The notes beneath the pieces are model-generated. The model searched no databases. It saw only the letters and a program-made list of their open reading frames with translations, and was not told the DNA's origin. DNA of 63,346 nt, the filler included, from Reclinomonas americana ATCC 50394 (Eukaryota): NCBI GenBank assembly GCA_048213135.1. It is 13 parts of 13 records of this genome, joined end to end, with 100 filler letters (N's around TTAATTAATTAA, not from the genome) between each part and the next. Parts side by side here need not be neighbours in the genome. Positions count along the whole stretch, not along the records: positions 51,918 to 63,346 come from AFZH01021284.1; 12 more parts are not named here. One strand, given 5' to 3'. Position numbers and translations under genes: made by a program. Shown here in pieces: positions 52,426-54,114 of this stretch; position 1 is the first letter of the stretch, and each line of letters opens with the position of its first letter.

Positions 52426-54114
52426 TGGCTGCGTCGAGCTCCAGTCGCGCGCCATACTTGGTCATCACTGACACGCTCGCCAACCAGCTGCTTGCACTGC
52501 AAGAGCGCAACGAGGAAAGAGGCGACGGCGATGAGCCGGCACGCAAGGTATCGCCGCCATGCTACGTCAAGTTGCACTCATCCTCACCTGTGTTTCGCGA
52601 TGCAGCGAGTGCGCAGTGCTGGTGACGCAGAGCAAGGGCAAGTGGTGGTGCGTGTGCGCCAGGACAGCGCCGCGCAGTGGACTCCACAGGTGAGTGATGA
52701 TGATGATTGCATTTGCGTGCATGCAAGTTCACTCACAGTTGTCTTGAACAAGCAGCACGCTGTCGCTGCGCCGTACGTATATCACCCGGCGCGCATGTCC
52801 TTGTGCCTGCTCGGCGACTCGACACTCGCCACTCGTTACATGCGTGCCCGCGACAAGAAGGCGCGCGATCGGAAGAAAGCCCGACAAAAGTGGTCACACT
52901 CGACAGCCGCTGCGCCAGCCGCTGCACCGCCACCGCCGCAGTGCTCTCACGAGTGGCTGGGAACAGTGGCCAATGCATATGCGAGGTTCCTGGCGTGGCG
53001 CTCGCTGCTACGCGGAGGTGCCGTGCATGCACAGTCGTCGTCTTCGTGGCTGTGGGTTGCTGCAATGCCCCTGACCGACTCGGCGCTGATGCTGCGGGTG
53101 TTTGCGTTCTTGGAGGAGTCGGATCGTGTGCACTGTGCGTCAGTGTGCCGCTGTTGGCACGCCATTCTTCGTGGACACGGGCGTCTGCTCAAGTTTGCGC
53201 AGCAACAGCAGCCGTCGTCGTCGTCGCTGGCGACGCGAGTGTCGCCACACCTGCCGTCGGCAGAGTACGCATTGTCACATATTGTGGCCTCTGATCTCGC
53301 TTCCGTGGCACCAACAGCCGCCACCCTGGTTGCCACAGGCGATTGGAGACGTGGGGTGGCGGAAGGTGTCGATGTGCGGTTCGACATGATAGGCAGTGCT
53401 TCGTGGCAGTGTACGAATCGCGCGGCCCACTGTGTGCTGTGGATCCCTGGAGGTGGGCCGTGGGTGTCGCCAACGCTGCTGCCGCCTCGGTGTGTGGCTC
53501 GCGTGGGTGACTTGGTGGCCGACGGTGGTGCACTGCTGGCCGGTGAGTATGACTTGGTGCTAATGGACCCGGCGTGGCCGGAGAATCGTAGTGTGACTCG
53601 CTCCGGCAGCTACGGCTGCATGGCACTGGAGGATATTGTGCGACTGCCGCTCCAACTCGCACCGCACGCCCTCTTGTGTGTGTGGTGCACCAACAGCCCA
53701 TCGGTGCAGCATGCGGTGCTGCACGACATGTTTGGGAGACTCGGTGTGCGCCATGTGGCCACCTGGTTGTGGCTGAAGCTGGCGCGCAACGGTGAGCCGG
53801 TCGTGCCACTGGACAGTGACCACCGGCTTCCATACGAACCACTCTTTATCGCTGCTGGTCCCGCCTGGCGCGATGACGGTGCGCCGGCACTGCCCCCGGA
53901 GTTGACGATCATGTCGGTGCCGGCACCGAGCCACTCTTGCAAGCCGTGCTTGAAGCAGCTGCTGGAGAAGCATGCCATGCGACCGGAAGGAGGCCGCGAG
54001 CCACTGCGCGCACTGGAGGTGTTTGCGCGCTCGCTCACTGCTGGGTGGACGTGTGTGGGACTGGAGTGCTTGCATCGCATGACGGTGCCTGGCCCACTGT
54101 TGGATCGCATGTGA
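52426..54114 (+). CDS. METTL4: MT-A70 family adenine methyltransferase, METTL4-like, with an internal F-box motif
   Basis: YDLVLMDPAWPENRSVTRSGSY, LLCVWCTN, WLWLKLARNGEPVVPLDSDHRLPYE, SVPAPSHSCKP and LEVFARSLTAGWTCVGLE match METTL4 blocks. F-box-like LTDSALMLRVFAFLEESDRVHCASVCRCWHAIL lies upstream in the same frame. Start approximate. Confidence 0.85.
   Translation, partial: WLRRAPVARHTWSSLTRSPTSCLHCKSATRKEATAMSRHARYRRHATSSCTHPHLCFAMQRVRSAGDAEQGQVVVRVRQDSAAQWTPQVSDDDDCICVHASSLTVVLNKQHAVAAPYVYHPARMSLCLLGDSTLATRYMRARDKKARDRKKARQKWSHSTAAAPAAAPPPPQCSHEWLGTVANAYARFLAWRSLLRGGAVHAQSSSSWLWVAAMPLTDSALMLRVFAFLEESDRVHCASVCRCWHAILRGHGRLLKFAQQQQPSSSSLATRVSPHLPSAEYALSHIVASDLASVAPTAATLVATGDWRRGVAEGVDVRFDMIGSASWQCTNRAAHCVLWIPGGGPWVSPTLLPPRCVARVGDLVADGGALLAGEYDLVLMDPAWPENRSVTRSGSYGCMALEDIVRLPLQLAPHALLCVWCTNSPSVQHAVLHDMFGRLGVRHVATWLWLKLARNGEPVVPLDSDHRLPYEPLFIAAGPAWRDDGAPALPPELTIMSVPAPSHSCKPCLKQLLEKHAMRPEGGREPLRALEVFARSLTAGWTCVGLECLHRMTVPGPLLDRM

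Follow-up and report, generated by a model that had tools for sequence, protein, structure and literature searches.

Does a locus of the protist Reclinomonas americana ATCC 50394 encode an adenine methyltransferase that carries its own docking site for a ubiquitin ligase? We analyzed a window of 63,346 nucleotides from this organism (GenBank assembly GCA_048213135.1), whose last part, positions 51918-63346 (AFZH01021284.1), contains on the plus strand the gene for a METTL4-like protein. An initial annotation of this gene had claimed that an F-box motif is fused in-frame to its methyltransferase domain. We find that, as far as sequence goes, the similarity to F-boxes is real, and that by both sequence and predicted structure the enzyme part is of the METTL4 type. 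In our estimate there is an even chance that the insert is a genuine lineage-specific F-box to which Skp1 docks, making the METTL4-type enzyme part of an SCF (Skp1-cullin-F-box) ligase, either as its receptor or as a self-regulated subunit.

The question matters because the role of METTL4 is disputed, the contending products being N6,2'-O-dimethyladenosine (m6Am) in U2 small nuclear RNA (snRNA) and N6-methyladenine (6mA) in DNA, and because only an indirect connection between METTL4 and protein degradation has been reported. Were nature to have fused METTL4 with a Skp1-docking module, this would argue on genetic grounds that the enzyme works beside a cullin-RING ligase, and would offer a simple handle for probing that idea. 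If the F-box is inert, the protein is just a further case of lineage-specific domain accretion among protists, of little consequence.

An F-box-like motif upstream of the MT-A70 domain

The peptide singled out in the initial annotation is encoded at 53068-53169, with a methionine codon just before it at 53065. The profile check proposed there placed the F-box-like, F-box and MT-A70 models of Pfam all above their cut-offs, with E-values computed over the whole library of 24,736 models. Numbering residues on the translation of 52756-54111, the F-box-like model (PF12937) reached 25.5 bits at residues 111-139, above its cut-off of 24.3 (E = 1.1e-5; profile positions 8-36 of 47), and the F-box model (PF00646) matched residues 111-142 with 21.2 bits against 20.5 (E = 2.6e-4; profile positions 8-39 of 43). 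The motif as a whole comprises residues 104-142 (53065-53181, plus strand, with the Pfam matches at 53086-53181) and retains the core ...VFAFL...D...ASVCRCW....

A 65-residue segment searched alone with phmmer against 177,635 PDB sequences recovered seven matches, and all seven are F-boxes aligned at the F-box, namely FBXL3 (E = 0.022), four FBXW7 sequences, KDM2B (6bva_E) and FBXL2. On these gap-free alignments, identities counted by hand amount to 11 of 32 positions with FBXW7 and 11 of 28 with FBXL3 (34-39%), the V-C-R-x-W stretch included. In a language-model feature search (Atlas) the top three named clusters for residues 90-165 were F-boxes, at scores of 0.77-0.81; shuffled proteins get there a third of the time, and we take this result as a lead only. 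Pfam found no F-box in any of the 44 other open reading frames (ORFs) of at least 180 residues in the window, nor in any of the 150 ORFs of 110-179 residues that come first by coordinate among 159, most of them in non-coding frames. At the locus itself, neither the remaining frames nor the other strand gave an F-box match.

The methyltransferase part

The MT-A70 model (PF05063) matched residues 265-437 (53548-54066, plus strand) over its entire length, profile positions 1-172 of 172, with 81.6 bits against a gathering score of 23.9. The best PDB match in a phmmer search was Arabidopsis METTL4 (7cv6; E = 2.8e-21; query residues 264-440), with MTA1-type chains at E = 0.097 or worse, and a local hidden Markov model (HMM) built from 105 relatives scored the query at 219 bits. 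Ranks 1-9 in a Foldseek search were METTL4 structures, with E-values down to 1.8e-18, followed by METTL3/14 from rank 10; the alignments to full-length Arabidopsis METTL4 extended over up to 351 columns. The clusters nearest to the protein in the Atlas search were also METTL4. The family-invariant residues W310, K341, E361, K396, E421, R425 and G435 are all present in the query. The METTL4-like identity proposed at the outset is upheld by the match to 7cv6, the Foldseek ranking and the Atlas clusters.

Upstream of the catalytic domain, a full-length AlphaFold2 model built with an alignment of 107 relatives predicts two further elements. One is a Lys/Arg-rich basic helix at residues 23-46 (52822-52893, plus strand; block pLDDT, the predicted local distance difference test, of 68-75). 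The other is a beta-rich, MID-like middle domain at residues ~190-250 (53323-53505, plus strand; block pLDDT 56-95), on which the Foldseek alignments also bear. Because the model shows confident strands in the middle domain and a moderately confident helix before it, we place the F-box in the variable region between the N-terminal elements and the middle domain. The available text of the Arabidopsis structure paper describes an N-terminal domain with a long helix and an Ig-like middle domain that together embrace the catalytic domain of METTL4, and states that activity needs the N-terminal region (PMC9512776). The basic helix of the query is probably part of such an N-terminal domain and possibly a nuclear localization signal as well. 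By analogy with its relatives the protein is probably still a methyltransferase, and its target, if it follows the human, fly and plant METTL4 proteins, would be the Am of U2 snRNA.

Gene structure and reading frame

No open frame in the window is longer than the stop-free one at 52426-54114 (562 codons), which, as the initial annotation had stated, holds both the F-box peptide and the MT-A70 domain; the two also share an exon. This last exon (52756-54114, plus strand) encodes 452 codons and a TGA stop (54112-54114), and runs unbroken from the basic helix through the F-box and the middle domain to the end of the MT-A70 domain. The 264 stop-free codons 5' of the MT-A70 domain have a chance probability of 1.2e-4 given the base composition, or of 3.6e-3 given the six-frame stop rate of the window. 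Across the F-box the guanine-cytosine (GC) content by codon position is 0.68/0.46/0.68, which is coding-like and resembles that of the MT-A70 part.

The 5' end of the gene allows several models. Candidate starts are the ATG codons at 52389 and 52425, both of which require a 58-nucleotide intron at 52548-52605, and those at 52531 and 52600 in the main frame. For the start at 52425, the candidate first exon (52425-52547, plus strand) would consist of 41 codons from the ATG, with a peptide beginning MAASSSS; it was read by eye from the list of ATG codons and their frames and is uncertain. Candidate intron 1 (52548-52605; GT...CAG), read from the sequence by frame arithmetic, links the frame of exon 1 to that of the main ORF and is required only for the starts at 52425 or 52389. 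It would be followed by a candidate second exon of 28 codons (52606-52689) and by a candidate second intron of 66 nucleotides (52690-52755; GTGAGT...CTCAC...CAG). As this second intron is in frame and stop-free, the reading frame is kept whether it is spliced or not. Two local HMMs of the N-termini of relatives found no significant match on any frame of the locus and do not fix the start codon; placement of the query N-terminus with MAFFT was set aside as unreliable.

The F-box is retained under every candidate gene model. In a donor scan of the locus, 53065-53181 was crossed by no candidate intron and had no strong splice donor, and the only GTGAGT donor 5' of the F-box is the one opening candidate intron 2. 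The initial description of a fusion holds in the sense of a shared frame and exon; the F-box lies well inside the protein, 100 residues or more from whichever candidate start is used, and is not an N-terminal fusion. Low-complexity runs flank it, rich in Ala/Pro before and in Gln/Ser after.

Rarity of the architecture

An exhaustive HMMER search recovered 1173 relatives at E <= 1e-3, the best with 119 bits and 42% identity; in none of them does the alignment begin before residue ~185-265, and in some it begins at ~185-204. Scanning relatives from the top 150 of the 1173 cluster representatives, we found no F-box at E <= 0.01 in any of 152 MT-A70 relatives (75 and 77 in two batches; a 76th protein of the first batch was a spurious repeat protein). 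A metagenome scan with a smaller alignment yielded seven environmental METTL4-like loci, three of which are complete single-ORF genes, and none of the seven has an F-box in the 74 ORFs examined; the rest of the 106 ORFs, located entirely 3' of the match, were set aside. A word-indexed search with the whole protein gave three matches, confined to the MT-A70 part, and again only three when an alignment was used as the query.

Among the entries listed in the literature searched, judged mostly from that listing, no fusion of an F-box with METTL4 or with MT-A70 came to light. The term "F-box" has no occurrence in the available text of the survey of eukaryotic adenine methylase architectures by Iyer et al. 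(PMC4738411). The initial annotation had known of no standard METTL4 with an F-box, and the scanned relatives and environmental loci agree with it. The combination of METTL4 and an F-box is known so far from one draft sequence only.

Does the motif act as an F-box?

Several observations weigh against a Skp1-docking role in an intact enzyme. The F-box scores exceed their cut-offs by only 1.2 and 0.7 bits, and since the PF12937 and PF00646 models are related, the second match does not independently back the first. Neither match includes profile positions 1-7, and the position of the FBXW7 Leu-Pro is occupied in the query by T107-D108 (53074-53079), with a proline at 53068 lying two residues upstream of that register. 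The fit to the F-box consensus claimed in the initial annotation is accordingly a partial one, good for the core and for both Pfam cut-offs but not for the Leu-Pro start. The proline of this Leu-Pro matters for Skp1 binding; functional F-boxes without it do exist. A crude regular expression for the canonical LPxE start matched none of 154 proteins, the query among them. In the full-length model pLDDT stays below 50 across residues 87-188, the segment folded alone yields a pair of long helices where three short ones would be expected (pLDDT 62.8), and a Foldseek search with this segment-alone model returned no match. Residues 1-240 found no relative in the word-indexed search, and none was among the 130 pattern matches of a metagenome scan that used the protein as query. 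The sequence is, moreover, a draft of joined contigs.

The enzyme part adds doubts of its own. The catalytic motif reads D-P-A-W (53566-53577, plus strand), with an Ala codon, GCG, at 53572-53574, where all 75 aligned relatives have the second proline of DPPW; the Asp and the Trp are retained. DPPW is described as strictly conserved in the available text of the Arabidopsis structure paper (PMC9512776). DPAW may be a genuine variant of the catalytic motif, which might then weaken the enzyme, or else stem from a miscalled base in the draft. The MT-A70 score of 81.6 bits is lower than those of all 75 relatives scored (90.9-143.9 bits), and the domain is therefore unusually diverged; together with DPAW, this low score suggests that the enzyme may be degenerating.

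With these points in view, the foremost alternative is that the motif descends from an F-box or arose convergently and binds no Skp1, being a lineage-specific helical insertion in the disordered region ahead of the middle domain of an ordinary, perhaps weakened METTL4. We think this clearly less probable than Skp1 docking, though far from negligible. The Leu-Pro missing from its register, the unmatched start of the profile, the marginal Pfam scores, the low structure confidence and the insertion between low-complexity Ala/Pro and Gln/Ser runs all speak for it, and absence of the motif from the 152 relatives and seven environmental loci fits a young, possibly non-functional acquisition. What speaks against it is that the hydrophobic core and V-C-R-x-W are retained at 34-39% identity to solved F-boxes by hand count, that the reading frame is intact, and that F-boxes lacking the proline can be functional.

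An altogether different doubt concerns whether the F-box belongs to the mature protein at all, as a missed intron, a downstream start or a draft joining unrelated pieces within the contig might each have brought it spuriously beside the methyltransferase. The start is indeed ambiguous among 52389, 52425, 52531 and 52600, and the window is chained from contigs, which leaves the quality of the assembly uncertain. The gene, however, lies in a gap-free stretch that extends from 51918 to the end of the window, its F-box and MT-A70 domain occupy one frame of 562 codons without a stop, and neither a strong donor nor a candidate intron covers 53065-53181. A start 3' of the F-box would also strip the N-terminal region, without which METTL4 is not active according to the available text of the structure paper (PMC9512776). 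We hold an artefact of this kind to be improbable. Least probable of all, in our view, is that a Leu/Val/Cys/Trp-rich helix in a GC-rich genome just happens to pass two lenient Pfam cut-offs. Scores within 1.2 bits of those cut-offs, and Atlas values that shuffled proteins also reach a third of the time, are what such a coincidence would produce, but it sits badly with an E-value of 1.1e-5 over the 24,736-model library, with the lack of F-box matches in all 194 control ORFs of the same composition, and with PDB matches that number only seven and are without exception F-boxes in the right register.

Genomic context

The window is eukaryotic, with a GC content of 54-61% in 4-kb windows and short GT...AG introns; the donor hexamer GTGAGT is over-represented, with 36 occurrences on the plus and 54 on the minus strand against ~14 expected per strand. 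Twelve joins between 2727 and 51917 (e.g. 51818-51917) each consist of 44 N, TTAATTAATTAA and 44 N, forming a six-frame stop linker; the window is thus a chain of contigs and not a continuous sequence.

Upstream of the methyltransferase gene lies an intraflagellar-transport (IFT)-like gene (49405-52306, plus strand) with sub-threshold matches to the beta-propellers and TPRs of IFT80/172/WDR35/WDR19 and a C-terminal zinc-ribbon-like Cys motif. It seems to cross the join at 51818-51917. Its stop codon, at 52304-52306, lies ~118 nucleotides before the candidate methyltransferase ATG at 52425, which indicates a very compact genome. On the other side, a convergent ORF (54115-54563, minus strand) encodes a product with an acidic, Lys-rich tail and only weak low-complexity Pfam matches; its stop codon at 54123-54125 is 8 nucleotides from that of the methyltransferase, so that the 3' untranslated regions must overlap. 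A photolyase assignment for the downstream region 54980-56627 (minus strand) was dropped, as Pfam gave no match. A connection with oomycete DAMT enzymes was considered and likewise abandoned, since nothing links the window with oomycetes.

Elsewhere in the window, an ORF at 5169-5507 (minus strand) has a sub-threshold match to the Virilizer N-terminal domain (24.4 bits, short of the 27.7 required; E = 2.2e-5), Virilizer being a subunit of the writer complex for N6-methyladenosine in mRNA. A Ddi1-like gene (15008-17405, plus strand), split across frames by introns, combines a weak ubiquitin-like match with a following retropepsin-type aspartyl protease domain. Two ORFs ~7 kb apart (19722-20339 and 26963-27586, both minus strand), neither with a Pfam family, begin with near-identical peptides, which suggests segmental or tandem duplication. 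Two WD40 beta-propeller genes (43545-44834 and 46063-47175) stand close together on the plus strand, and a cathepsin-L-like cysteine protease with an I29 propeptide is encoded at 58526-59608 (minus strand; 241 bits). One or more kinase genes were also detected with Pfam.

Functional implications

We read the gene as encoding a METTL4-clade N6-adenosine methyltransferase, in which a basic helix at the N-terminus precedes the beta-rich middle domain and the MT-A70 domain, and which in this lineage has gained a diverged F-box of ~40 residues in the variable, low-complexity-flanked region between the helix and the middle domain. Docking of Skp1 by this F-box would place the methyltransferase in an SCF-type cullin-RING ligase, along the lines of the coupling of adenine methylation to ubiquitylation that the initial annotation had put forward as a possibility. 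The enzyme might then act as substrate receptor, with proteins near its U2 snRNA or DNA substrate becoming ubiquitylated. Alternatively, the enzyme itself might be turned over by auto-ubiquitylation, as happens to many F-box proteins.

A more far-reaching form of the receptor scenario would make the polypeptide a writer and an E3 receptor in one, an SCF(METTL4) in which the methyltransferase domain recognizes the site and proteins on the same U2 small nuclear ribonucleoprotein or chromatin site are ubiquitylated. The methyltransferase domain may in that case be active or, through the DPAW change, may serve as a binding module. We consider this form unlikely. Were it true, the fusion would serve as a Rosetta stone, pointing to METTL4 and ubiquitin ligases being connected in general, and the mammalian METTL4-6mA-TRIP12-ASXL1 axis would be the version of that connection in trans.

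Comparison with known systems

The closest known counterparts of the enzyme part are in the METTL4/DAMT-1 clade, typified by Arabidopsis METTL4 (PDB: 7cv6-7cva and 7dpe). The MT-A70 domain aligns end to end with residues 226-404 of 7cv6, the H-S-x-K-P and E-x-F-A-R stretches are retained along with the family-invariant residues, and the predicted beta-rich middle domain and methyltransferase fold best match full-length METTL4. Unlike these proteins, the query has the F-box-like insert seen in none of the 152 relatives, the DPAW motif, a longer pre-catalytic region and the lowest MT-A70 score of the set.

Among F-box proteins, those of FBXW7, FBXL3 and FBXL2 share with the query the hydrophobic pattern of helix 1, the loop Asp and the V/T-C-R-x-W stretch in gap-free alignment. 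They differ in that the Leu-Pro of FBXW7 is replaced by Thr-Asp in the query, and in that no WD40 or leucine-rich repeats follow the motif, their place being taken by the middle and MT-A70 domains. Enzymes with an F-box of their own offer a parallel in architecture. KDM2A and KDM2B (FBXL11 and FBXL10) combine an enzyme acting on a chromatin mark with an F-box in one polypeptide, and the KDM2B F-box is among the PDB matches of the segment; their catalytic domain is a JmjC histone demethylase, whereas that of the query is a methyltransferase, and their F-box lies C-terminal to the catalytic domain and is followed by leucine-rich repeats. FBH1, the analogy drawn in the initial annotation, is a nucleic-acid enzyme, a DNA helicase, fused to an F-box, which lies near its N-terminus, and it forms an SCF complex. 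It is unrelated in sequence to the query, and no FBH1 chain is among the PDB matches of the segment.

A functional parallel comes from mammals, where, according to the available text of the report, METTL4-dependent 6mA leads to TRIP12-mediated degradation of ASXL1 (PMC7697007). There, too, METTL4 activity is tied to the ubiquitin-dependent destruction of proteins recruited to the mark. In the mammalian case ubiquitylation is carried out in trans by a HECT ligase distinct from METTL4; the fusion in the Reclinomonas protein could embody the same logic in one polypeptide.

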